From a bacterium (GTDB taxonomy: Bacteria > Hinthialibacterota > Hinthialibacteria > Hinthialibacterales > Hinthialibacteraceae): a DNA stretch of 41,607 bases. The stretch is taken from NCBI GenBank assembly GCA_963663405.2, contig CAXXSM010000060.1, forward strand, positions 1 through 41,607, in the 5' to 3' direction. How positions within the stretch are numbered: position 1 is the stretch's first letter; each line of letters begins with the position of its first letter. Below are positions 2,096-26,133 of the stretch, in pieces. The translations under genes were made by a program, and so were the position numbers. A model generated the notes under the pieces. That model ran no database searches. It was not told the origin of the DNA and was given only the letters and a program-made list of their open reading frames with translations.

Positions 2096-2953
2096 ATGTT
2101 ACAACAAGCAAAAGCAAGAAATATTGATGAAGAGAAACAAAAGAGAGATGAAGAGAGACTTTCCCGGCGAATGCAAGAGATTAATTACAAAATACTTGTC
2201 ATCTCCGGAAAAGGTGGTGTAGGTAAAAGCACTGTCGCGGTAAATCTTGCGGCGGCGTTATCGGCGATGGAGAAGAAGGCGGGGCTGTTGGATGTGGACA
2301 TTCATGGACCCAGTGTACCTACGTTATTGGGATTGCAGGGATGCCGGTTTGAATTTGAGGGGAATGAAATCCTTCCTGTGACGGTATCGGATACATTAAA
2401 AGTCGTCTCAATCGGTTTTTTGCTCGATAAAAAGACCGACGCCGTCATCTGGCGGGGACCCCGAAAATTCCATATGATCAAGCAGTTTTTGACCGATGTG
2501 AATTGGGGATCGTTAGATTATCTAGTCGTCGATTCCCCTCCTGGCACCGGCGATGAACCGATGGCGGTCGCACAATTGGCCGGAGCTCCTTCTGGAGCTG
2601 TGATTGTTACTACGCCACAAGATGTGGCGATTCATGATGTCCGGCGCTGCGTCACCTTCTGCCATACACTATCTATTCCTGTGTTAGGCATTGTCGAAAA
2701 TATGAGTGGATTAGTCTGTCCCCATTGCGGGGAAACGATCGATCTCTTCAAATCCGGCGGAGGCGAGGCTTTAGCGGAGGAAATGAATGTTCCATTCCTC
2801 GGCAAGATCCCAATCGAACCAGAAATTGTACGGGTGGGAGATAATGGATTATCGTATGGTGAACATAAAACCGATCATCCTGCGGCGAATCATTTTAAAC
2901 CAATCGCACAACAGATTATTTCCACGAGTATGAACACAGCGATTGAGAGTTGA
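2096..2953 (+). CDS. mrp: Mrp/NBP35 (ApbC) Fe-S cluster carrier ATPase
   Basis: SGKGGVGKST deviant Walker A, DVDIHGPS, VIWRGP, DSPPGTGD, VTTPQ, ENMS..CPHC. Confidence 0.95.
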   Translation: MLQQAKARNIDEEKQKRDEERLSRRMQEINYKILVISGKGGVGKSTVAVNLAAALSAMEKKAGLLDVDIHGPSVPTLLGLQGCRFEFEGNEILPVTVSDTLKVVSIGFLLDKKTDAVIWRGPRKFHMIKQFLTDVNWGSLDYLVVDSPPGTGDEPMAVAQLAGAPSGAVIVTTPQDVAIHDVRRCVTFCHTLSIPVLGIVENMSGLVCPHCGETIDLFKSGGGEALAEEMNVPFLGKIPIEPEIVRVGDNGLSYGEHKTDHPAANHFKPIAQQIISTSMNTAIES

Positions 2954-3054
2954 TTCTTTCTCCCTTTCCCAATGGATCGAATCGTGTTGAGATATACTAG
3001 GGAATACAATCCACCGATTGTTCCATATTTATAGCAAGAGAGGGAAAGGATATC

Positions 3055-3705
3055 ATGCATAAAATAAACACAATTAAAATATTTTCTGTATTTATTTCAC
3101 TGATAGTAACCAGCGTTGTATTCGTCTCTCTTTTTCAACAAAGTTATGCGGAAACGGGAAATGTTCAATCCAAAGAAAAGGTAGAATCTCAGAATCAATC
3201 TATAAGCGATAAAGAAAATGGAGATGATAAGAATTCACCTATGAGCGATTCAAAACAAACTTTCTCCTTCAAACCGATTGGCCTCTTTCACTCTCCATAC
3301 AATTCCATGCGCCGCCCACCCCGGCAAGGCCGCTTGGCGCCGGATGTGTCCGCACAAATTGAGATTTATGAAGAATTTCAGGAAGGATTGGAAGGCATCG
3401 AGGATTTTGATTATATCTATGTCCTATTTGTTTTCGATCGCAGCCGGAGTTGGACATCGAAAGTGACGCCTCCTGGCGCAACGCAGAGCCGGGGAGTCTT
3501 TTCCACTCGCTCACCCAACCGGCCGTGCCCCATTGGATTAACCGTCGTCCGGTTGGAGAAACGTGAAGGCTGTTTTTTACATGTGAAAGGAATCGACGCG
3601 TTCGATCAAACACCGGTTCTCGATATTAAGCCTTATATCAATAGCATTGATTCATTTCCCGATGCGGGGAAGGCAGTTGAAAAAAAATTGGGACTGCAAC
3701 GATGA
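3055..3705 (+). CDS. tsaA: TsaA/TrmO (YaeB/AF0241-like) SAM-binding protein with an N-terminal signal peptide and linker
   Basis: KPIG, PRQG, GVFSTRSPNRPCPIGLT, GIDAFDQTPVLDIKPY motifs. The first 32 aa look like a Sec signal (hydrophobic core, SYA/ET). GGAAAGGA lies just upstream of ATG 3055. Confidence 0.85.
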   Translation: MHKINTIKIFSVFISLIVTSVVFVSLFQQSYAETGNVQSKEKVESQNQSISDKENGDDKNSPMSDSKQTFSFKPIGLFHSPYNSMRRPPRQGRLAPDVSAQIEIYEEFQEGLEGIEDFDYIYVLFVFDRSRSWTSKVTPPGATQSRGVFSTRSPNRPCPIGLTVVRLEKREGCFLHVKGIDAFDQTPVLDIKPYINSIDSFPDAGKAVEKKLGLQR

Positions 3706-16674: not shown

Positions 16675-16846
16675 AATAATAAAAAACTGAATTATCAATC
16701 TTATTATATTTATGTTCTTCGTAAGGCTGGATCTACGTTATCATCAATGTGTAATATTGTGATGAAAATAGCGCATCGTATTTATCATTTCTTTCGCGAA
16801 ATCTACAACTGGTTTTGAAAACAAAATACAAAATGCGGGGATATTG

Positions 16847-17443
16847 ATGATGTCATTTCAAGTATTAAACCAGGATCAACAGAGAGGATTTACGTTAATT
16901 GAACTGTTAATCGTTGTCGCGATCATTGGTATATTGGCTGCGATCGCCGTGCCCAATTTTCTCAACGCCATGCTGCGAGCGAAGATCGCCAATACGCAAA
17001 GTGATCTTCGCACTATGGTCAACGCTATGTTGCAATACCATCTGGATAATAATTCCTACCATGCGCATCGAGATGGAGCGGCGCAGCAATTTCCATTGAC
17101 AACACCTGTGCCGTACTTGAATCACTTTTTAGAAGACCGCTTTCAAGATACATATACAGTGAAAGGCACAAGTTTGGATCCAGCCGCCGACGGATATTCC
17201 GCTTCTTTTTCATATTATCACTGGATTCCCTATAGTACGCATACGGATTGGTGGTACATTTCCGGCCCACGCAGTCACCCGATGGTCCGGGAAGCGCAGA
17301 AGACGCGGTATGGGGGAATCGTGGATGGATGGGGACCAGCAGGTGTACGTGGCGGTCCTCCGTATGATCCTACTAATGGACTGCTCAGCCTTGGTGGATT
17401 TTTCCGCCGGGTTCCTCCCGGTCAAGCCATTCATCTCTATTGA
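16847..17443 (+). CDS. Prepilin-type (GspG/PilA-like) N-terminal methylation domain protein
   Basis: RG/FTLIELLIVVAIIGILAAIAVPNF; LTTPVPY; C-terminal YDPTNGLLSLG. Confidence 0.92.
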   Translation: MMSFQVLNQDQQRGFTLIELLIVVAIIGILAAIAVPNFLNAMLRAKIANTQSDLRTMVNAMLQYHLDNNSYHAHRDGAAQQFPLTTPVPYLNHFLEDRFQDTYTVKGTSLDPAADGYSASFSYYHWIPYSTHTDWWYISGPRSHPMVREAQKTRYGGIVDGWGPAGVRGGPPYDPTNGLLSLGGFFRRVPPGQAIHLY

Positions 17444-17664
17444 AGCCGAAGGCCTTTTATTAACCGCTATTAATTAAATCCCCCTCATCCTTTCATCCAA
17501 TCCCTATTACTATACGGCGCCGCATTATTATTGAAACAAAAACCTGTATCTCATCCTGTACTTACAAGATCCTCTCTTCCTCACCTACACGCAGTATTTA
17601 TCCTCAAGAATAAATGTCCTCATGTAAATTCCGTATTTTTTTTCTGGTTGGTGGTAAGAAAAAA

Positions 17665-17694
17665 TGTCCCTTTTTACGTATTCAATTGTATAGA
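17665..17694 (+). promoter_or_regulatory. Possible autoregulatory ECF promoter
   Basis: TGTCCC(TTTTT) followed about 17 nt later by GTATAGA, just upstream of the RBS of ECF sigma 1. Position and layout are suggestive only. Confidence 0.3.
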
Positions 17695-17708
17695 TTAAAG
17701 GAGAGAGA

Positions 17709-18278
17709 ATGACCTCGCGGCATGAGACTCTAATAGAAAGATTGCGAAACGCGGACCGAACCGCGTTCGACGACATCGTCGCTTGGTACGCGGATGATGT
17801 CATTCGACTAGCGGTCATCCTTCTCGGTGACGAGGACGAAGCGCGGGACGCGCTTCAGGAAACTATGCTGCGGTTGGTCCGGATGGTGAAAAACAATCAA
17901 ATCCGGAGTGGAAATGGATCCATTAAAGGTTTTCTCTTGACAACGGCCCGAAACCTTTGTCTCAACCGGTTGAAGCAGAAGAAACGCTTCATCCAAACAG
18001 AGGAAACAGAATGGGAATTATTTGAGCCGATGCGGGATCACAACACACCTGGAAAGGCGGCGCGGGAATCTGATTTCCTCACTGCGTTTCAAGAAGCGCT
18101 GACTCATCTTCCACCGGTCCAGCGTGTAGCGCTAGCCATGCGGGAAATCGAGGGAGAATCATATCAATCCATTGCGCAAACACTGGATATGTCCGTTGAC
18201 AGCGTAAAAAAACAGGTTTACCGGGGACTGAAAAAACTTAGACACTTATTGAAACCATATGCGGGACAATCGCTATGA
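17709..18278 (+). CDS. ECF RNA polymerase sigma factor 1
   Basis: Region 2 DEARDALQETM...FLLTTARNLCLN; region 4 LPPVQR...EGESYQSIAQTL..SVDSVKKQVYRG. Confidence 0.95.
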   Translation: MTSRHETLIERLRNADRTAFDDIVAWYADDVIRLAVILLGDEDEARDALQETMLRLVRMVKNNQIRSGNGSIKGFLLTTARNLCLNRLKQKKRFIQTEETEWELFEPMRDHNTPGKAARESDFLTAFQEALTHLPPVQRVALAMREIEGESYQSIAQTLDMSVDSVKKQVYRGLKKLRHLLKPYAGQSL

Positions 18279-18931
18279 ATCAATGGAAACACGAGTGGGG
18301 CAAGGAATCTTTCGAACACTTTTCTAATGACGGCGCCTCGCCCGATAGGAAAGGTGAAACTGAAGATTTCGAAGGGTATGGGCTGATTCGCCAAGGCTTT
18401 CACAATCACCCCATTCCCCCCTATGATTCCGGCCATTTGGCTCAGATGATGTTCGATTCCGCCGTCCCGCATAAACCAATTATTCGAACCGTCTCTCCAT
18501 TTAGACTCTCTTGGAACTTCGCGCTGACATTCGCCAATGGTTTAGCGATTCTGTTATGCGTGATCGTTTTAGGAATTCAATTCGCATCCATATCGTCCAA
18601 TGGAATCAAAACTGCGCGTCTTTCTCCTATAGAAAGCGCATCGAAAATGGATCCATCCTGGCTTTGGGCGATGCGGCTGCGGATGGGAAATCTGGTGACA
18701 ATCCCCCCGTATATGACTGGGGAATTCGAATTAATAGATGGATCTACATTACACGCATCCGCGGGCGCTCAGATCGCGATCCAGTTCGGCCACGATCGCC
18801 GCGTTCAATTAAAACGTGGATCCATTCATGTATGGGCGGCGAAAAACAAAGAAACACCGATGATTGTATGTACTCCGTTGGCCGATGTTATTGTCACCGG
18901 CACCGTGTTCAACGTTCAAGTACTGCCATAA
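18275..18931 (+). CDS. Membrane anti-sigma factor carrying only the N-terminal part of a FecR domain
   Basis: ATGA overlap with the sigma gene; one TM helix (LAILLCVIVLGIQFA); FecR motifs L.DGS.L, V.L..G.I, V.TP...V.VTGTVFNV, then a stop. Confidence 0.85.
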   Translation: MNQWKHEWGKESFEHFSNDGASPDRKGETEDFEGYGLIRQGFHNHPIPPYDSGHLAQMMFDSAVPHKPIIRTVSPFRLSWNFALTFANGLAILLCVIVLGIQFASISSNGIKTARLSPIESASKMDPSWLWAMRLRMGNLVTIPPYMTGEFELIDGSTLHASAGAQIAIQFGHDRRVQLKRGSIHVWAAKNKETPMIVCTPLADVIVTGTVFNVQVLP

Positions 18932-18989
18932 CCACGCCACAAAGACACAACATATTATTCCGTCATTTATCACACATAGGAGGATAGCT

Positions 18990-21900
18990 ATGCGTAACTG
19001 GGTTCCGTTTGCCGCAATCACACTTGTAATCATCGTGATACTTTTAACCGTCATACTCAGTGGCGATCCAGAAAACAAAGACGCCAATGGATTGCTTGTG
19101 TCCGTCGATGAAGGAGGCGTCAACGTTCAAAACAGTCAAGGTTCAACGAACCTGAACGCAGGAGAAAGCGCTCAGGTGGCGCCCGATGGATCGATCGAGA
19201 AAAAAGACTCGTCTGGAAGCGAGTCTGAAAATGAATCCGCCGCTCCGAAAACAGAAGCAACGCTCATCGCTTCCTCCACCGCCGGACAGGATATCGCCTA
19301 CGCGACCAAAGTCGCGTTATGGATAACGGGTTATTCACTTACTGACCAAAATGAACCGCTTGCGGAAACAGTCGTGAAACTATTTTCAAGAGATAATCCA
19401 ACACAATCAGTTAACGCGGCGAAAGACGCAGGGGTCGTATCGGTCAAAACGAACGACAAAGGATATTACGCGCTCCAAGTTCCTGAGATGGGACGGTATT
19501 TTCTATACGCTTCCCCGCAAGGCCCTTATAGCAACGAAAGAGAACGAGTACGACTTACGGATGAGACTCCTGCCGCTGAGATCAATTTTACACATGAATC
19601 CACTTCCTTAGCCGTTCGCGGTAAAGTGATTGACAAAGAGACACAGGAACCGATAGCCGGCGCGTTACTCGTATTATCTCCCAATCCAATAAACATAGAG
19701 AATGCGGTAAAAAACAAGCCAACCGCTGAATCAGACATAAATGGACAATTTATTATTGAGAAAGTTCCGGAAGGAACGTATAACATCGAAGCGTCGGCTA
19801 AAGGCTATCAGGCGCATGAACCACGTCCCTGGCGCGATCCCACAGATCCTCTTGGGAATATTACCGTCAGCGAACAAACACAAGCGAAAGAACATATCGT
19901 TGAATTGCAGCCAGGTGGATCGGTTCTCGTTCGTGTCTTCGATTCTGAGGGCAATCCATTGCCGGACATAACTATCGGGATCGCGATGCAAGGTTCCGAT
20001 CTGTTACCGAGATCAACGGGACGAACGAACGAACGGGGCGAATATCAAAACGATACGCTTCCTAAAGGGAAAGGGCTCGCTTTTGCGAGAGAACGAATTA
20101 GAGATAACGAATCCTCCACCTATGGGATGACGTTGAGCGAAATGTTTGAAACGGGAACCGTCGACGATCCTGCGGAAGTGGAAATCACGATGTCTAAAGC
20201 ATCGTCGATATCCGGCCGGGTGATGAATGAGAATGGCGATCCGGTTTCCGCTATATTATTCGCTCACAACGTTGAAATCCGCCGTATTGCGATGAATGTG
20301 TCGCTGAGCTACCTTTATTGCGAAACGGATGGGAATGGAAACTACACACTTTATGGTCTGGGAGAAGGAACCTGGGAGGTAACCGCTTCAAAAAGAGAAC
20401 AGGGGGATGTCGAAAGAAAACCAAATAAAAAAACCATTGAGATCAAAGGTGAAGAACACTTAACTGGGATCGATTTTATCTTTGGAGAAGAAGAGGAAGG
20501 GGAAACGATTGAGGGCATTGTAAAAGATCAATTCGATGAACCGGTTACGACTGCGCGTCTCTATGTAAATACTCGCAATGAAAAAGGAGAACTGGTCTCG
20601 TCCAGTGGAAAAACGGATGAAAATGGGCATTTTAAAATCAGTGGTTTAACGAAAGCCCCCAATGTCCAAATTGGTTGCTTTGCCGAAGGATATAAAAGCC
20701 ACAACCATCCCCACAAAATGGATGGTTCCTTGATCGAAATCACCATGATGAAAGGTGGTTCGATGGAGGGGATTGTAATTGATAAGGCGGATCAGACACC
20801 GCTTGCGGGTATTCAAGTCCGAATCGATTTTCAATCCGATCCCAACGTTGAAGAAAAGATTGCGGTGACCGACGGTAGTGGACATTTCAAATTCGAAGAG
20901 TTACAACCTGGATTTTATAAAATCATGGCGATTGGAGAAAACTATTCCCGTTTCGAACGCACAAAAGTCGAGCTTCAGCCCGGTGAAGAGTTGACGGGTC
21001 AAGTGATCGATATGGAACAAGGAGTAACGTTCATCGGCCGTTTGACCGGACCGCAAGGAGAACCGGTCGTCGGCGCATCGGTGGGTTTATTGTCGAATCG
21101 ATCGACGGATTTAAATGTCACACACGGTTCGACAATCATTCCGATGCCGGACAGCGTTTCTTCGAACCAAGAAGGGATTTTTCAAATCCAAATCCCATCG
21201 GAGAGAGGGGATACACTCGTCATCATTCCTTCGAATCTCGCGCCAAAGACATTCGCGGTCAATGCGGAAATGGCTCAATCCGAACCGGTCCCCATTCCCG
21301 TAGGAAACGGAGGCGTGGTTGAGGGAACCGTTTTCAACAGTCAAGGCGCCGCTCAAAATTCAGCCAAGATTTCAATCATCGATACACCCGACAGGCTCTT
21401 CCCTTACACCGCATATACAAATGAAGAGGGCTATTATCGCATCGAGCGCGTAGCCGCCGGTCAGAAGGACATAAGTAAACAAGGAGATCAGGGATCATTA
21501 TCCAATGAAACAAAAAAGGCGTCTGTTCAAGAAGGAGAGACAGTGCGCGTTGATTTCGGAAGCGGAGAAGGCGCATTGATCCAAGGAATCGTTACGAAAG
21601 GGGGCGAACCTGTCCCGAACGCCTCTCTCGTTTTAGAGGATCGGGTTAACAGAAATATACGCCTGTTTACTCTTTCAAATGAAAATGGCCTTTATCAAAT
21701 CAAAGGCGTGCCAGATGGTGAATATACACTTTTATGTACGACGAGTGAAAATCTAAACTACATCGGCACATACAACGCCGAAGACTTTGAAGAACTGACT
21801 GTCACAGAGGATCAACAGGAGTATACAGTCAATTTTTCTCTTAAGGAAAAAGAATTGCTGGGAACAATCTTGGATGCGGAAACCGGTGAACCGATTCCAG

Positions 21901-22673
21901 GAGTTGCCGTGAATGCGATAAACAAAGATAATCCAAGAGTCTATATTCCAGAAACAAATACAGAACCGGATGGCCGATTCAAATTGCTATTAAGAAAATC
22001 AGGCTTGTATACAATACACAGCGCAAAAGTGGGCTATAACAATGTGGAAACGGAAGTTGAATACTCTTTAGACGCGGGAGATGAACCACTTACAGTAGAA
22101 ATACAAATGGAACGCGCGGACTGTCAAGTCGAAGCGCATTTAGTTATGCCGATTCAGGATATTGATCCCCGGCCTCCTATTTTTCAAGCGATAGGTGAGA
22201 ATCCTCCCCGGCTGTCGTATGAAGCGATTCCAGACCAGCCTTACACGTACCGCATTACGGGAATGGAAGAAGGCATGCTCGATTTGCGAGTACGTCTATC
22301 AACGAGAGACCGGACATTTCTTGCAATTTCCGACCCAATTCCCGTTAAGAGAGGAGAGACAACACAGATCTTTATGAACTTTTTTGAAATCTCGAGTATA
22401 AATATGCGTCTCATAACGAGTGATGGCTCTCCCATTCCAGCAGAAAAGTCCGCTTACAGGATTGAATTTCAAAATTTCCCCCAATCATCCAAACTTGAGA
22501 TTTCCCCGTCGGTTAGTGAGAATAATATTCAAGTCGAAACACCGCTGGGCAATTATCCGGCGCGGCTTACTGTAACCGGTTTTAAACCTGTAGACTTTAT
22601 CCCCGAAGCGATCGCCGAAATGCAATGGGGACAATCTTTAATGCAGTTGGATTTGAGATTGGAGAGAGAATAA
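18990..22673 (+). CDS. 1227-aa membrane-anchored protein: C-terminal FecR fragment followed by about 10-12 carboxypeptidase-regulatory-like (prealbumin/Cna-B fold) repeats
   Basis: AGGAGGA at 18978-18984; N-terminal TM helix; LLVSVDEGGVNVQNSQGSTNLNAGESAQV; repeated G.V.D..G.P..GA...TD..G.F/Y units. Confidence 0.88.
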   Translation: MRNWVPFAAITLVIIVILLTVILSGDPENKDANGLLVSVDEGGVNVQNSQGSTNLNAGESAQVAPDGSIEKKDSSGSESENESAAPKTEATLIASSTAGQDIAYATKVALWITGYSLTDQNEPLAETVVKLFSRDNPTQSVNAAKDAGVVSVKTNDKGYYALQVPEMGRYFLYASPQGPYSNERERVRLTDETPAAEINFTHESTSLAVRGKVIDKETQEPIAGALLVLSPNPINIENAVKNKPTAESDINGQFIIEKVPEGTYNIEASAKGYQAHEPRPWRDPTDPLGNITVSEQTQAKEHIVELQPGGSVLVRVFDSEGNPLPDITIGIAMQGSDLLPRSTGRTNERGEYQNDTLPKGKGLAFARERIRDNESSTYGMTLSEMFETGTVDDPAEVEITMSKASSISGRVMNENGDPVSAILFAHNVEIRRIAMNVSLSYLYCETDGNGNYTLYGLGEGTWEVTASKREQGDVERKPNKKTIEIKGEEHLTGIDFIFGEEEEGETIEGIVKDQFDEPVTTARLYVNTRNEKGELVSSSGKTDENGHFKISGLTKAPNVQIGCFAEGYKSHNHPHKMDGSLIEITMMKGGSMEGIVIDKADQTPLAGIQVRIDFQSDPNVEEKIAVTDGSGHFKFEELQPGFYKIMAIGENYSRFERTKVELQPGEELTGQVIDMEQGVTFIGRLTGPQGEPVVGASVGLLSNRSTDLNVTHGSTIIPMPDSVSSNQEGIFQIQIPSERGDTLVIIPSNLAPKTFAVNAEMAQSEPVPIPVGNGGVVEGTVFNSQGAAQNSAKISIIDTPDRLFPYTAYTNEEGYYRIERVAAGQKDISKQGDQGSLSNETKKASVQEGETVRVDFGSGEGALIQGIVTKGGEPVPNASLVLEDRVNRNIRLFTLSNENGLYQIKGVPDGEYTLLCTTSENLNYIGTYNAEDFEELTVTEDQQEYTVNFSLKEKELLGTILDAETGEPIPGVAVNAINKDNPRVYIPETNTEPDGRFKLLLRKSGLYTIHSAKVGYNNVETEVEYSLDAGDEPLTVEIQMERADCQVEAHLVMPIQDIDPRPPIFQAIGENPPRLSYEAIPDQPYTYRITGMEEGMLDLRVRLSTRDRTFLAISDPIPVKRGETTQIFMNFFEISSINMRLITSDGSPIPAEKSAYRIEFQNFPQSSKLEISPSVSENNIQVETPLGNYPARLTVTGFKPVDFIPEAIAEMQWGQSLMQLDLRLERE

Positions 22674-22812
22674 AACCAAAATTCGTTATCTATTCCTGCT
22701 TATTCGCCCAATACGATTTCAACTCAAACCTCCATTCATCTCTTAAAGCATTGACCTCCAGCGAACAAGCCACACATATCACTGCTCGATCCTACTTTTT
22801 CGTTCTGACAAC

Positions 22813-22839
22813 GAACTTCTATCCCATCCCTGCGTAGTA
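22813..22839 (+). promoter_or_regulatory. ECF-type promoter (AAC-N16-CGTA) upstream of ECF sigma 2
   Basis: GAACTT at 22813-22818 and CGTAG at 22833-22837; 16 nt between AAC and CGT, matching the SigW/RpoE-type consensus layout. Confidence 0.6.
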
Positions 22840-22874
22840 GATAATAGAAACGGAATTAAAACAATTCACTTTTT

Positions 22875-23393
22875 TTGTTAACAAAAGCCGATCCGGATCG
22901 TATGGACATCATTCGCGCAAATTATAGAGATTTGTATTGTTTCGCATTCCGCATGACCGGAAATCACGAAACCGCGGAAGATATTGTCCAAGAAACATTT
23001 TATAAGTATAGCCGGAAGAATCCTGATCTCCCACATAGAGAAGCGATCCGGCGCTGGCTGTTTGTCGCAATCCGAAATCTGTGTATCGACTGGCTGCGAA
23101 AGAAAACGAAGGCTCCAATCTTGTCCACCGAAGATGAGACAGAGTTATCAACAGACGCTCAAAATCCAGCCGATGTGGTTCTAAAGACGGAACAAGAACA
23201 GATGATTCAACAAGCCGTGCTGTCGCTGCCCCCTCTACAGAGGGAAGCGTTGATTCTTCGAGAATATGAACAGATGAGTTACCGGGACATCGCCGAAGTG
23301 ACCGGCAGTCCAATCGGCACAATCCGCAGCCGGTTGGCGAAAGCCCGGGATGAATTACGAATTCGTTTGCGGCCTTTGCTGCAAGATTTATAA
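22875..23393 (+). CDS. ECF RNA polymerase sigma factor 2
   Basis: AEDIVQETF, WLF...RNLCID, LPPLQREALILR...SY..IAEV.G.PIGTIRSRL..AR. Start may be ATG 22902. Confidence 0.95.
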   Translation: MLTKADPDRMDIIRANYRDLYCFAFRMTGNHETAEDIVQETFYKYSRKNPDLPHREAIRRWLFVAIRNLCIDWLRKKTKAPILSTEDETELSTDAQNPADVVLKTEQEQMIQQAVLSLPPLQREALILREYEQMSYRDIAEVTGSPIGTIRSRLAKARDELRIRLRPLLQDL

Positions 23394-23416
23394 GGAACGA
23401 TCGCTGGAGGCAGGCT

Positions 23417-24067
23417 ATGGCCTGGAAGATGCCCCAAACAGAAGAAGAATGGATGGAATACTTATCCGCGTATCTGGATGGTGAACTGCCATTCGAAGAA
23501 CGGAAGGCGTTAGAAGAATATTTGCAAAACAATCCAGAACAAATGCGGCGTTTGCAAGGCTATCAACAAATGTCTTCTCTGTTACGCGCTTGGACTGTGA
23601 GGGTTCCCGATCCCAATCCATCGTTTGTCAAACGAATGGCTCAAGAGACCGAATATAGAGAGAAACCTTCCACGATCTGGCAATGGTTAGGCGTTCCCAC
23701 CTTTCAATGGGGTCAATTCGCCTCTGGAATGATTGTAGGTATCTTCTCGCTGTTAATTTTGCAGGCGTATCTTCCCATCAAAACAGCGCAGATCCTTTCC
23801 ACATCAATGCCTCCCGCAAACGCAACACCGGTTTACAATTTCCATCTCTCACAAGAGCAGGCGGAAAATTTATTACAAGAAGTCACAGCGAAGGGAATGG
23901 TTGTAGAACTCAAAACACTCATCCTCAATCGAAACTGGAGTCAAGCGGCTCAGGCCTATCAATTGTTACAAGAAAATTATGCAAACACGAAAGCGTTTAT
24001 CGAAGTAAAAAATCAACCTGACATACAGGCTCTGATCGAAAAAATCAACGATTCAAGGAGTATTTAA
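23417..24067 (+). CDS. Membrane anti-sigma factor (zf-HC2-like N-terminus lacking the HxxxCxxC ligands)
   Basis: LSAYLDGEL..EE...LE.YL; one TM helix; GGAGG RBS; C-terminal TPR-like helix pair. Confidence 0.85.
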   Translation: MAWKMPQTEEEWMEYLSAYLDGELPFEERKALEEYLQNNPEQMRRLQGYQQMSSLLRAWTVRVPDPNPSFVKRMAQETEYREKPSTIWQWLGVPTFQWGQFASGMIVGIFSLLILQAYLPIKTAQILSTSMPPANATPVYNFHLSQEQAENLLQEVTAKGMVVELKTLILNRNWSQAAQAYQLLQENYANTKAFIEVKNQPDIQALIEKINDSRSI

Positions 24068-24069
24068 TC

Positions 24070-26133
24070 ATGAATAATCAATTCATTTTAATAACGGCCA
24101 TTGGTTTTATCTTAGTAATTTCTCTCAGCGGGTGCGTAACCAATCCGATCGCATGGAGTCCGGATGGACGCTACATCGCTTTCACCGGGATGGATGATGA
24201 AAAACTCTGGGTGTGGGATAACCAGTCGCAAACCATAACGCTTTACAACGATGACCATATAAGAGAATGCCGTTTTGTCAATAATGGGGAAGAACTACTC
24301 TATACAAAGTCACGCCAGGATCCTGGGGAATACTATGATTTCTTTAAAACAAACATTCACTCACATGGTGAAGAAGTCCTCGTTGAAAAGGCGGCTCTCT
24401 TCTTTGACACATCGGACGATGGAAAATACTTGTTCTATTTGAAAGAGGATGAAGAAAAGAAACAGTGTGAATTATGGCAGATCGATATAACAACGAAAGA
24501 AAACACCCGGTTGTTTGGACAGCAAGACCTAAATATTGATTTCGTCGACGTCGATTCATCCGGCCAACGGTTTTTATTCACAGCCGATAAGAGTCATATA
24601 GCGCTTTGGGAAAAAGGAGATACGGGAAAGTTAAAATTACTAAAGGAGAACAATACCCGAGACCTTGTATTTCCTCAATGGTTGGATCATGACCGCTACT
24701 TCTATTATGAAACGGATAATGATAACGACGTAGGAAATCTAATTTTGGATTCGATCAAGTCTCCAAATCCCAATATCCTATGTCAAGATGTTTGTGTCTG
24801 GGATCTTCCATCGATTACTCCCAATAAAAAAACCATCATCGTTTCTGTAAGACTTGATGAAAAAAACTCTCAACTCATAGAAATCGATCTCACAACAGGC
24901 GAAAAGAAGTTATTGACCAATCATATTTTTGGAGCTAGTTGGGGCGCGCTCAGCCCGGATGGAAAAAAACTCGCCTATATCCCAAGTCCATACAAAGACG
25001 AATCACATTTTATGCTACGGCTGCTCAACCTGGAAAATGGGAAGGAACAAATCATTTGGCGCAATCATGAAGAGCGTTTATTTGCAATTTCCGAAGCGCT
25101 TTTTCAACAGGAAGAATATGCGCTCGCGGTCAGCAGCTATCACGATTTACTGGCTCTATCTCCAGGACCTGAAATGGCGAATATGGCTTGGTTACGAATC
25201 ATGCAGTCTTATCTTACTCCACTGCATTTGGATTTAGATAAAGCGTTTGAAGCGCTGAACGAAATGCCTCAGCCAGACATCATGGCGCATTCCCTTTTCT
25301 GGAAAGAAACAGTTCGAACGGTGAGCGATCCAGCGGACGATTGGATTGAGCAATACGGAACGAAAGAGTCTCAAGAGAAATTTGGATTCAATACCGACTC
25401 CACTCGCGATCTGCGGGGTCTCGCCATCAAACATTCAGATCAAAGGCTGTTTTTGAAAGTCGATTATAATTCCAACCGCGATCTATCAGGATTGACATTC
25501 TCGGACACGATCATTCTTCTTGACTATGACTCGCCCAATTCAGGTTGTCACACGATTTCCAACATCACTAAATGGGATCGGGGCGCGGAACGAATCATTG
25601 CGCTTCGACACTGGTATGAACAGGGACGAGACAGTCAGTACGATATGGCGATAATGAATGAAAAAGGAGAGAATATCACATATTTTCTCGCCGCCGGTTT
25701 TTCTCCCCCCAAACTGCCCCATTTCGACCTGATAGAAATCCAAGGCCAAACGGGATCGTATTTTCTTTCAAAAACCAAAGAAACGATAGAAGACGTTCTT
25801 GGTTTCGTAGGGATCGATCCTAACGCGTCAGAGATAACCGTTCAACAAGAAACAAGCGGAGAGGAAGGCTCCATCGTATTTTCGATCGCAAAAGATATAT
25901 TGGATCTTCCCAAGAATAAAAAGATATTTATTCAAGTCTGCGTATTGAAAGGTGGAATTGAAAGTTATCAAAAAACCGAACGCCCTCAAAAGATGCTGAT
26001 CGATAACAAATTGGTTTGTGATGTGGCTGACGCGTTTGGAAATGAGAACACGGCTCAGCGGATTTTAAACGAGGTAAAAGCCGGTAAACCAGCCATAATC
26101 AAAGGGTATGGCGCCGTTTTGGAAATGCAGTAA
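24070..26133 (+). CDS. Lipoprotein with a TolB-like beta-propeller, TPR-like helices and a C-terminal beta-sandwich domain
   Basis: LSGC lipobox; WSPDGRYIAF and LSPDGKKLAY PD40-type repeats; EEYALAVSSYHDLL; 2 nt downstream of the anti-sigma stop. Confidence 0.8.
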   Translation: MNNQFILITAIGFILVISLSGCVTNPIAWSPDGRYIAFTGMDDEKLWVWDNQSQTITLYNDDHIRECRFVNNGEELLYTKSRQDPGEYYDFFKTNIHSHGEEVLVEKAALFFDTSDDGKYLFYLKEDEEKKQCELWQIDITTKENTRLFGQQDLNIDFVDVDSSGQRFLFTADKSHIALWEKGDTGKLKLLKENNTRDLVFPQWLDHDRYFYYETDNDNDVGNLILDSIKSPNPNILCQDVCVWDLPSITPNKKTIIVSVRLDEKNSQLIEIDLTTGEKKLLTNHIFGASWGALSPDGKKLAYIPSPYKDESHFMLRLLNLENGKEQIIWRNHEERLFAISEALFQQEEYALAVSSYHDLLALSPGPEMANMAWLRIMQSYLTPLHLDLDKAFEALNEMPQPDIMAHSLFWKETVRTVSDPADDWIEQYGTKESQEKFGFNTDSTRDLRGLAIKHSDQRLFLKVDYNSNRDLSGLTFSDTIILLDYDSPNSGCHTISNITKWDRGAERIIALRHWYEQGRDSQYDMAIMNEKGENITYFLAAGFSPPKLPHFDLIEIQGQTGSYFLSKTKETIEDVLGFVGIDPNASEITVQQETSGEEGSIVFSIAKDILDLPKNKKIFIQVCVLKGGIESYQKTERPQKMLIDNKLVCDVADAFGNENTAQRILNEVKAGKPAIIKGYGAVLEMQ

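Follow-up and report, generated by a model that had tools for sequence, protein, structure and literature searches.

How does a FecR-type anti-sigma factor work when its gene stops partway through the FecR domain? This question is raised by three genes within a 41,607-nucleotide stretch of bacterial DNA (contig CAXXSM010000060.1, referred to here at its full length as the window). The genes, at 17709-18278, 18275-18931 and 18990-22673, lie head to tail on the + strand and are one conserved three-gene extracytoplasmic function (ECF) signaling module, in which a periplasmic FecR-type domain is split between an anti-sigma factor and the very long repeat protein encoded next to it (the big protein). 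A first-pass annotation of the window had proposed that the two proteins rebuild one FecR fold in trans, and four lines of evidence support this proposal: the pieces abut on the domain, the split is conserved, fused forms carry the complete domain, and a complex of the two pieces is predicted. The gene coordinates and the features that had been read from the sequence (a transmembrane helix and a partial FecR domain before the stop codon, followed by AGGAGGA, ATG and a second transmembrane anchor) are as claimed, and the module is laid out as follows.

17709..18278, + strand: ECF sigma factor, 189 residues (Sigma70_r2 E 1.1e-11, Sigma70_r4_2 E 7.3e-16, Sigma70_ECF E 2.8e-5)
18275..18931, + strand: single-pass anti-sigma factor, 218 residues, with a cytoplasmic N-terminus of ~75 residues, a transmembrane helix and the periplasmic first part of FecR
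18518-18586, + strand: transmembrane helix of the anti-sigma factor, residues ~82-104
18722..18919, + strand: first part of the FecR domain, anti-sigma residues 150-214, about 12-80 of the 97 Pfam profile positions
18899..18904, + strand: codons of Gly209-Thr210, invariant in 23/23 family members
18929-18931, + strand: stop codon TAA of the anti-sigma factor
18932..18989, + strand: spacer of 58 nt, with an AGGAGGA Shine-Dalgarno sequence at 18978-18984 and the ATG 5 nt downstream of it
18990..22673, + strand: membrane-anchored repeat protein (P0001), 1227 residues, with 10 CarboxypepD_reg stretches
19002-19061, + strand: signal-anchor helix of the big protein, residues ~5-24
19086..19184, + strand: the missing C-terminal FecR strands, big-protein residues 33-65, placed by profile comparison
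19340..22135, + strand: beta-sandwich repeat array (CarboxypepD_reg / transthyretin-like), boundaries approximate

The anti-sigma factor matches the Pfam FecR model (PF04773) at 32.4 bits, above the gathering cut-off of 24, and has no match to any other Pfam family at E ≤1. It ends four residues past its FecR match and nine past the invariant Gly-Thr, and the whole FecR domain is not within this polypeptide. All 23 anti-sigma factors of the family match Pfam FecR (best E 9.1e-16), and the break falls 7-9 residues after the invariant Gly-Thr. As a template for the two pieces we used an alignment of nine intact FecR domains from the same genome. In hhalign, the profile of the short anti-sigma factors fell on template columns 14-93 (P 1.6e-13), while the segment of the big protein that follows its transmembrane helix (residues 33-65) fell on columns 94-126 (probability 92.6, P 4.6e-7, score 37.5), a score reached by 0 of 200 column shuffles (maximum 19.0); the reversed profile scored 11.3. 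The pieces therefore abut, with no gap and no overlap. Alignment of the separate pieces by hmmalign with the intact domains and with E. coli FecR, whose sequence was taken from NC_000913.3, gave the same abutment. This agrees with the earlier assignment of 19092-19180 (residues 35-63) to the C-terminal strands of FecR. In addition, Val39, Gly42 and Gly58 of the big protein are invariant in all 23 family N-termini, which are only 15-40% identical to that of the window, and these residues occupy the positions of the conserved V.V.EG.V motif in intact FecR domains. Together the alignments strongly support that each piece supplies exactly the part of one FecR domain that the other lacks, a relationship that on the side of the big protein is visible only by profile-profile comparison and through a fused homolog.

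The split module is widespread within one bacterial order, with up to five copies per genome. In the genome from which the window comes (G000; 8.4 Mb, 82% complete), five of the 15 FecR matches are trios of a sigma factor, a short anti-sigma factor and a membrane-anchored repeat protein with the same break (contigs C60, C159, C144, C140 and C42), with anti-sigma factors 25-30% identical to that of the window and big-protein N-termini 24-35% identical. We searched 41 genomes, the window's own and 40 relatives, with these five anti-sigma factors and found matches in 27, including 19/19 of the same family and 6/6 from two further families of the order; the nine genomes from other families of the class gave no match. 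At E ≤1e-20, one to five copies are carried by 18 of the 26 genomes of the order, and the 37 matches at this level are 36 open frames of 191-299 residues and one of 1420 residues. Other genomes contributed 19 strong loci, of which 18 keep the gene order and break point and one is fused. The 18 split anti-sigma factors stop 0-13 residues past the end of the profile match, and in each of these loci the next open reading frame has a Met-(Arg/Lys/Asn/Gln/Tyr) start, a transmembrane helix and the V.V..G.V strands. A hidden Markov model built from five N-terminal sequences detected the partner at domain E ≤0.003 in 14/18 loci; in the other four (L019, L031, L032 and L034) the match is weak (E 0.38-1.0), with the motif visible and aligned. 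Among 1.84 billion protein cluster representatives, 72 matched at E ≤1e-30, of which 70 are split and two fused. Counted from the Gly of Gly-Thr, 66 of the split ones end after 8-13 residues and four after 14-30. Division of the FecR domain between two genes is strongly supported as an old and maintained arrangement.

Other searches yielded less. A homologous-protein search with the anti-sigma factor returned its own cluster only and was uninformative, and a related-locus search with the single window anti-sigma factor returned no relatives. The same search with a sigma factor alignment gave 80 loci, with the split module only in L048 and general ECF sigma factors in the others. An atlas search with the big protein returned only generic CarboxypepD_reg clusters at scores of 0.80-0.81, below the trustworthy level. 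Two irregularities were seen in and around the anti-sigma genes. At L014 (G000:C144), the anti-sigma frame (2607-3356, - strand) runs 32-34 residues past the shared end and shares ~70 nt, read in a different frame, with the start of the big-protein gene. In run X2, a 207-nt contig (depth 2) has a one-base deletion at 18703 that is absent from three other runs and that we take to be an error.

The fused homologs connect the two halves directly. In G020, a member of another family within the same order, a single protein of 1361 residues (L047, G020:C17) is encoded after the sigma gene. It has the same N-terminus and transmembrane helix, lacks a second such helix, and continues into the repeats and a C-terminal end resembling that of the split form. 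Its FecR domain continues from Gly-Thr through one strand and a ~7-residue linker straight into the V.V..G.V strands, and so the linker replaces the stop codon, spacer, start codon and second transmembrane helix of the split form. In the upstream sigma factor, the anti-sigma N-terminus, the transmembrane helix, the repeat chain and the similar C-terminal end, fused and split homologs are alike. Both fused clusters, P0018 and P0023, hold a complete FecR domain (profile positions 5-96 and 6-96 of 97). An AlphaFold2 model of the fused domain, made with a 52-row alignment, has a mean predicted local distance difference test score (pLDDT) of 84.4 and 13 strands. Five of the strands follow the break position (98-104, 106-111, 114-119, 123-126 and 131-134), and the block-mean pLDDT is 94-97 over residues 91-130. 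At E ≤0.001, Foldseek matched this model solely to FecR-type structures, namely 4m0h, 4m0n and PupR 6ovk_R (E 7.8e-9 to 1.4e-7, root-mean-square deviation 2.0-2.4 Å over 127-132 columns, query template modeling score 0.63-0.65). The juxtamembrane beta-solenoid-like fold of 6OVK and 4M0N is thus found in the modeled fused homolog, and for the split pair the fold is that of the complex prediction alone.

We also inferred a maximum-likelihood tree by a quick method from 87 rows, with the fragments P0069, P0071, P0074, P0078 and P0083 omitted and seven intact anti-sigma factors cut at the same place as the outgroup. The two fused clusters form one clade, with a Shimodaira-Hasegawa-like approximate likelihood ratio (SH-aLRT) value of 95, nested in the split clade (branches 82-91). 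With moderate support, this topology favors a single early fission that was reversed once by a later re-fusion. In more distant relatives the FecR domain is intact, and the same chain goes on to different sensor domains (DUF3352, DUF3738).

The complex of the two periplasmic pieces was predicted from anti-sigma residues 125-218 and big-protein residues 25-80, each with a 23-row alignment. The interface score ipSAE was 0.63, 0.63 and 0.64, as compared with 0.00 for the best of three controls, and at least 96% of contacts were shared between runs. The partner had a pLDDT of 72-73 in the true pair, which dropped to 41 when the anti-sigma factor was replaced; when the partner was replaced, the pLDDT of the anti-sigma factor was 61-63, as opposed to 75-76 in the true pair. 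In the tool's calibration, 58 of 80 complexes with solved structures attained this mark, as did 2 of 110 mismatched pairs; these counts are only a rough guide here because custom alignments were supplied. The halves are predicted to assemble by beta-strand pairing, with anti-sigma residues 200-218 against big-protein residues 31-48: residues 212-216 pair with 35-40 of the partner and 203-206 with 45-47. Interface residues on the partner are 31-48, 55, 63-65, 67 and 69.

How the divided domain might signal is suggested by E. coli FecR. The first-pass annotation had assumed that canonical signaling uses an intact FecR domain, and this needs to be corrected. According to passages of a study of E. 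coli FecR (PMC12036975), the protein cleaves itself between Gly181 and Thr182 in the cytoplasm, and the two fragments remain associated non-covalently and are co-exported by the twin-arginine translocation (Tat) pathway, with Arg79-Arg80 as the twin arginine. The same passages describe how the C-terminal fragment protects the N-terminal fragment until ferric citrate, FecA and TonB bring about its removal, which is followed by a second (site-1) cleavage and then by RseP; the authors also asked why the fragments are not separately encoded. By hmmalign, Gly181/Thr182 of E. coli FecR aligns with Gly209/Thr210 of the window anti-sigma factor. Like E. coli FecR and the self-cleaving FoxR of P. aeruginosa, the window protein is a single-pass anti-sigma factor with a periplasmic FecR domain and a conserved Gly-Thr. 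Unlike in FecR and FoxR, the two pieces of the domain are separate genes. The break here is one strand (7-9 residues) past Gly-Thr, whereas E. coli FecR is cut at Gly-Thr itself, and the distal piece has a membrane anchor of its own, which that of FecR does not. About 10 or more beta-sandwich repeats stand in place of the STN-like C-terminal subdomain of FecR, and the window anti-sigma factor has no Arg-Arg before its transmembrane helix, in contrast to the twin arginine of the E. coli protein.

The partners of canonical FecR are scarce in this genome. As had been noted from the sequence, no TonB-dependent receptor lies in the window: its contig has no match to the Plug domain of these receptors, the two matches found in the 82% complete genome being on C106 and C18, and the contigs of the other four trios have none either. 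A single STN match exceeded the cut-off in G000, on C23, and FecR_C was absent among the 25 listed of 26 Pfam families matched by the big protein. With 15 FecR matches and only two Plug matches and one STN match, the FecR-type regulators of this genome are therefore mostly uncoupled from TonB-dependent transducers. A gene for an RseP-type Peptidase_M50 is present on contig C100.

Solved FecR-type domains place the module further. The C-terminal cell-surface signaling domain of PupR (6OVK) and BDI_1681 of Parabacteroides distasonis (4M0N/4M0H) are matched by sequence profile at E 5.9e-7 to 1.3e-4. Each is a single chain in which an STN subdomain comes next and binds a TonB-dependent transducer, whereas the domain here is split, and PupR has no Gly-Thr at the aligned position, in contrast to the invariant Gly-Thr of the split family. 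The chains 4m0n_A and 4m0h_A differ at the residue aligned to the Thr of Gly-Thr, reading Gly-Ala and Gly-Gly, and may be cleavage-site variants. The RsgI anti-sigma factors with SEAL domains (Bacillus, Clostridia), which have large sensor ectodomains, resemble the module only in how they work. As described in one report (PMC10556640), the RsgI juxtamembrane domain consists of two pieces held by a continuous beta-sheet, and their dissociation is regulated and permits site-2 cleavage. RsgI differs in its unrelated SEA-like fold, in pieces that arise by autoproteolysis of one chain and in its SigI sigma family, and we do not claim membership for the module. DdvA of Myxococcus was considered as an analog with a large ectodomain and set aside, as its ectodomain is TPR-CHAT and FecR is never mentioned (PMC11506125). 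In main-text passages of the ECF reclassification (PMC7826278), FecR-like anti-sigma factors appear only for FecI-like groups and ECF267. Our literature search found no FecR split at the gene level and no FecR halves with CarboxypepD_reg, although the supplementary ECF group descriptions (PMC7826278) might mention such a context.

By analogy with these systems, we read the module as a two-fragment FecR switch in which gene fission would take the place of self-cleavage, with one fragment built into a giant repeat protein and with no part for TonB-dependent receptors. The structural part of this reading, one FecR domain divided between two separately anchored neighbor proteins, we consider quite likely. 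For the mechanism as a whole, a gene-encoded two-fragment switch with release of the sigma factor on loss of the partner, our confidence is modest and we incline towards it cautiously. The anti-sigma factor carries the FecR domain through the strand after Gly-Thr, and the N-terminus of the big protein supplies the strands that follow, which number five in the fused-homolog model. The big protein would then be the detachable fragment and the sensor, in the role of the C-terminal fragment of FecR. As both halves are separately anchored in the membrane and no twin arginine precedes the transmembrane helix of the window anti-sigma factor, we propose that the halves assemble after export, whereas E. 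coli FecR assembles in the cytoplasm before Tat transport. While docked, the big protein would keep the anti-sigma factor folded and shielded. Were it to be degraded, unfolded or pulled away, a site-1 protease and RseP would gain access to the incomplete FecR half and the anti-sigma factor would be degraded; the freed sigma factor would then probably re-induce its own operon.

Autoregulation is suggested by one further feature.

17666..17692, + strand: candidate autoregulated ECF-type promoter, a GTCCC box, spacer and GTATA box, ending 16 nt before the sigma start

GTC[AC][CT]-like and GTATA-like boxes, ~17-20 nt apart and ending 7-32 nt before the sigma start, were found upstream of the sigma gene in nine of 21 family loci (the window, L024, L045, L048, L046, L029, L023, L027 and L019), as against an average of 0.55 and no more than 5 in 500 shuffles; the regular expression was picked after viewing the sequences, and the boxes are weak evidence. 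A general promoter and terminator scan of 17300-23000 was at shuffle level (9 promoter-like sites vs a mean of 8.6, and 11 terminator-like sites vs 7.3), with no terminator-like site on the + strand in the spacer at 18932..18989.

What the repeats contribute is a matter for speculation. An anchored rod of beta-sandwiches could serve as a pull-off or wear sensor, in which force or damage extracts the five strands, with no need for a TonB-dependent receptor or Tat co-export; extraction would unmask the anti-sigma factor for intramembrane proteolysis and the operon would be re-induced. On this view the invariant Gly-Thr may still self-cleave after assembly; the domain would then be in three pieces, with a strand of nine residues trapped. 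We offer this tentatively and think it doubtful as a specific account. The first-pass annotation had also suggested that the rod acts as an envelope ruler, an idea weakened by the big-protein paralogs of G000, which are 857, 925, 970, 1227 and 1238 residues long, because lengths that vary within one genome speak against a ruler of fixed length. The earlier interpretation as a whole therefore stands only in part: the rebuilding of FecR in trans is supported, release of the sigma factor on separation of the halves is plausible by analogy with E. coli FecR, the intact canonical FecR needs correction and the envelope ruler is weakened.

Three other accounts of the locus have to be weighed against the proposed switch. 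One is that the split reflects faulty sequencing or assembly, that it marks a pseudogene, or that programmed frameshifting or read-through bridges it; in its favor, the big-protein frame is open back to an in-frame TTG at 18864, where a different frame still encodes the end of the anti-sigma factor. We take the ATG at 18990 as the start, since 23/23 orthologs align from Met1, and every partner has its own Met start followed by a transmembrane helix. The same break occurs in five paralogs and in 18 loci of other genomes with no conserved frameshift site. Across the loci of other genomes, the frame offset between anti-sigma factor and partner is 0, 1 or 2 and the spacing ranges from -220 to +286 nt, which means that no frameshift or read-through device is conserved, and we rejected a fusion of this kind. 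Moreover, a read-through product would cross the membrane again after the periplasmic half, by a second transmembrane helix, and its repeats would end up cytoplasmic. In a second study, a contig spans 18300-19700 with 54 substitutions and 0 gaps, and the contig from the run that is probably the source shows no differences; no indel fuses the two frames, and the homologs are mostly split. Error or bridging is thus extremely improbable. It is improbable as well, to a lesser degree, that the halves do not interact, with the shortened FecR part folding and acting alone and the strands of the big protein being a relic of fission. Single N-terminal segments are indeed too weak for Pfam FecR, but the three residues at V.V.EG.V positions have stayed invariant despite the low identity of the N-termini, the complex is predicted with clean controls, and the five trailing strands of the fused model, at a pLDDT of 94-97, look integral to the domain.

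The most serious competitor is a stable two-subunit anti-sigma factor and sensor, permanently docked, that signals like its fused relatives through a ligand or proteolysis in the repeat chain, in which case the split would be a neutral fission. Fused and split forms coexist in one family with the same domain order, and the fused pair is nested in the split clade, which suggests that the two architectures are functionally interchangeable. Against this, the split form dominates (70/72 clusters and 36/37 matches in the order) and has been kept while paralogs diverged to 25% identity, suggesting that it is at least not disadvantageous, and FecR and RsgI, as described in the studies cited above (PMC12036975; PMC10556640), use dissociation of fragments as the regulated step. 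We regard permanent docking as possible and rather unlikely. The proposed switch itself faces several difficulties. The Pfam FecR search succeeded with the anti-sigma factor and failed with the N-terminus of the big protein, which alone has no match, as is true at E ≤1 for all 23 family N-termini. None of the 23 anti-sigma N-termini matches any anti-sigma N-domain family, and the anti-sigma role of these ~75 residues is inferred from gene order, with a 4-nt overlap with the sigma gene, and from the single-pass topology. Since intact FecR domains (4m0n, 6ovk) have been solved, the complex prediction may have passed through likeness to them, and it shows that the pieces can be modeled as one domain, not that they bind. 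Finally, the fused forms function without a detachable partner, and dissociation is therefore not obligatory across the family. These points all weigh against the switch.

The split family is a natural case of the separately encoded fragments that the authors of the FecR study had wondered about, in the passages cited (PMC12036975). It offers an existing system in which to ask if the association of fragments is by itself enough to control the stability of an anti-sigma factor, and an example of FecR-type signaling uncoupled from TonB-dependent receptors. Matched split and fused forms permit a direct comparison, and five paralogous pairs in one membrane raise the question of specificity, namely how they escape mispairing.

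The three proteins have further features. The sigma factor has regions 2 and 4 only, as ECF sigma factors (sigma-70 group 4) do. It matches TIGR02937, the generic sigma70-ECF superfamily, at 82.1 bits (cut-off 42.9), and among the best 25 of 97 NCBIfam matches this generic model alone is above its cut-off, with no FecI model. The start codon of the anti-sigma gene overlaps the sigma stop codon. Using the Kyte-Doolittle scale with a 19-residue window and a threshold of >1.6, we found one strongly hydrophobic segment in each of the other two proteins, at residues ~78-111 of the anti-sigma factor and 1-29 of the big protein. For the latter, the first-pass annotation had given about 10-12 carboxypeptidase-regulatory-like repeats, and CarboxypepD_reg (PF13620) matches in 10 stretches (E 5.2e-79, 261.1 bits vs a cut-off of 32.3). 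The listed Pfam matches of the big protein fall between residues ~118 and 1048, and no enzymatic domain is among the 25 listed of its 26 Pfam families. Its final ~180 residues (up to 22673) are free of listed Pfam matches, and we judge them by eye to be beta-rich.

A second trio lies directly downstream at 22875-26133, with an ECF sigma factor (22875-23393), a zf-HC2 anti-sigma factor of 216 residues (23417-24067) and a 687-residue PD40/beta-propeller protein with an N-terminal hydrophobic segment (24070-26133). Elsewhere in G000, large secreted-looking proteins beside intact FecR anti-sigma paralogs share a C-terminal motif (NWRLF, DWRLH, RWCLF, NWKIH, NWKNH, IWKIMQ) on contigs C170, C21, C118, C110, C4, C86 and C164 (loci L001, L002, L004, L008 and L010), which may be a lineage-specific sorting tag. 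Genes with a prepilin-type N-terminal methylation motif adjoin several FecR anti-sigma loci, both split and intact (16844-17443 in the window, and G000 contigs C42, C104, C4, C110 and C164), and may simply be very common in this genome.

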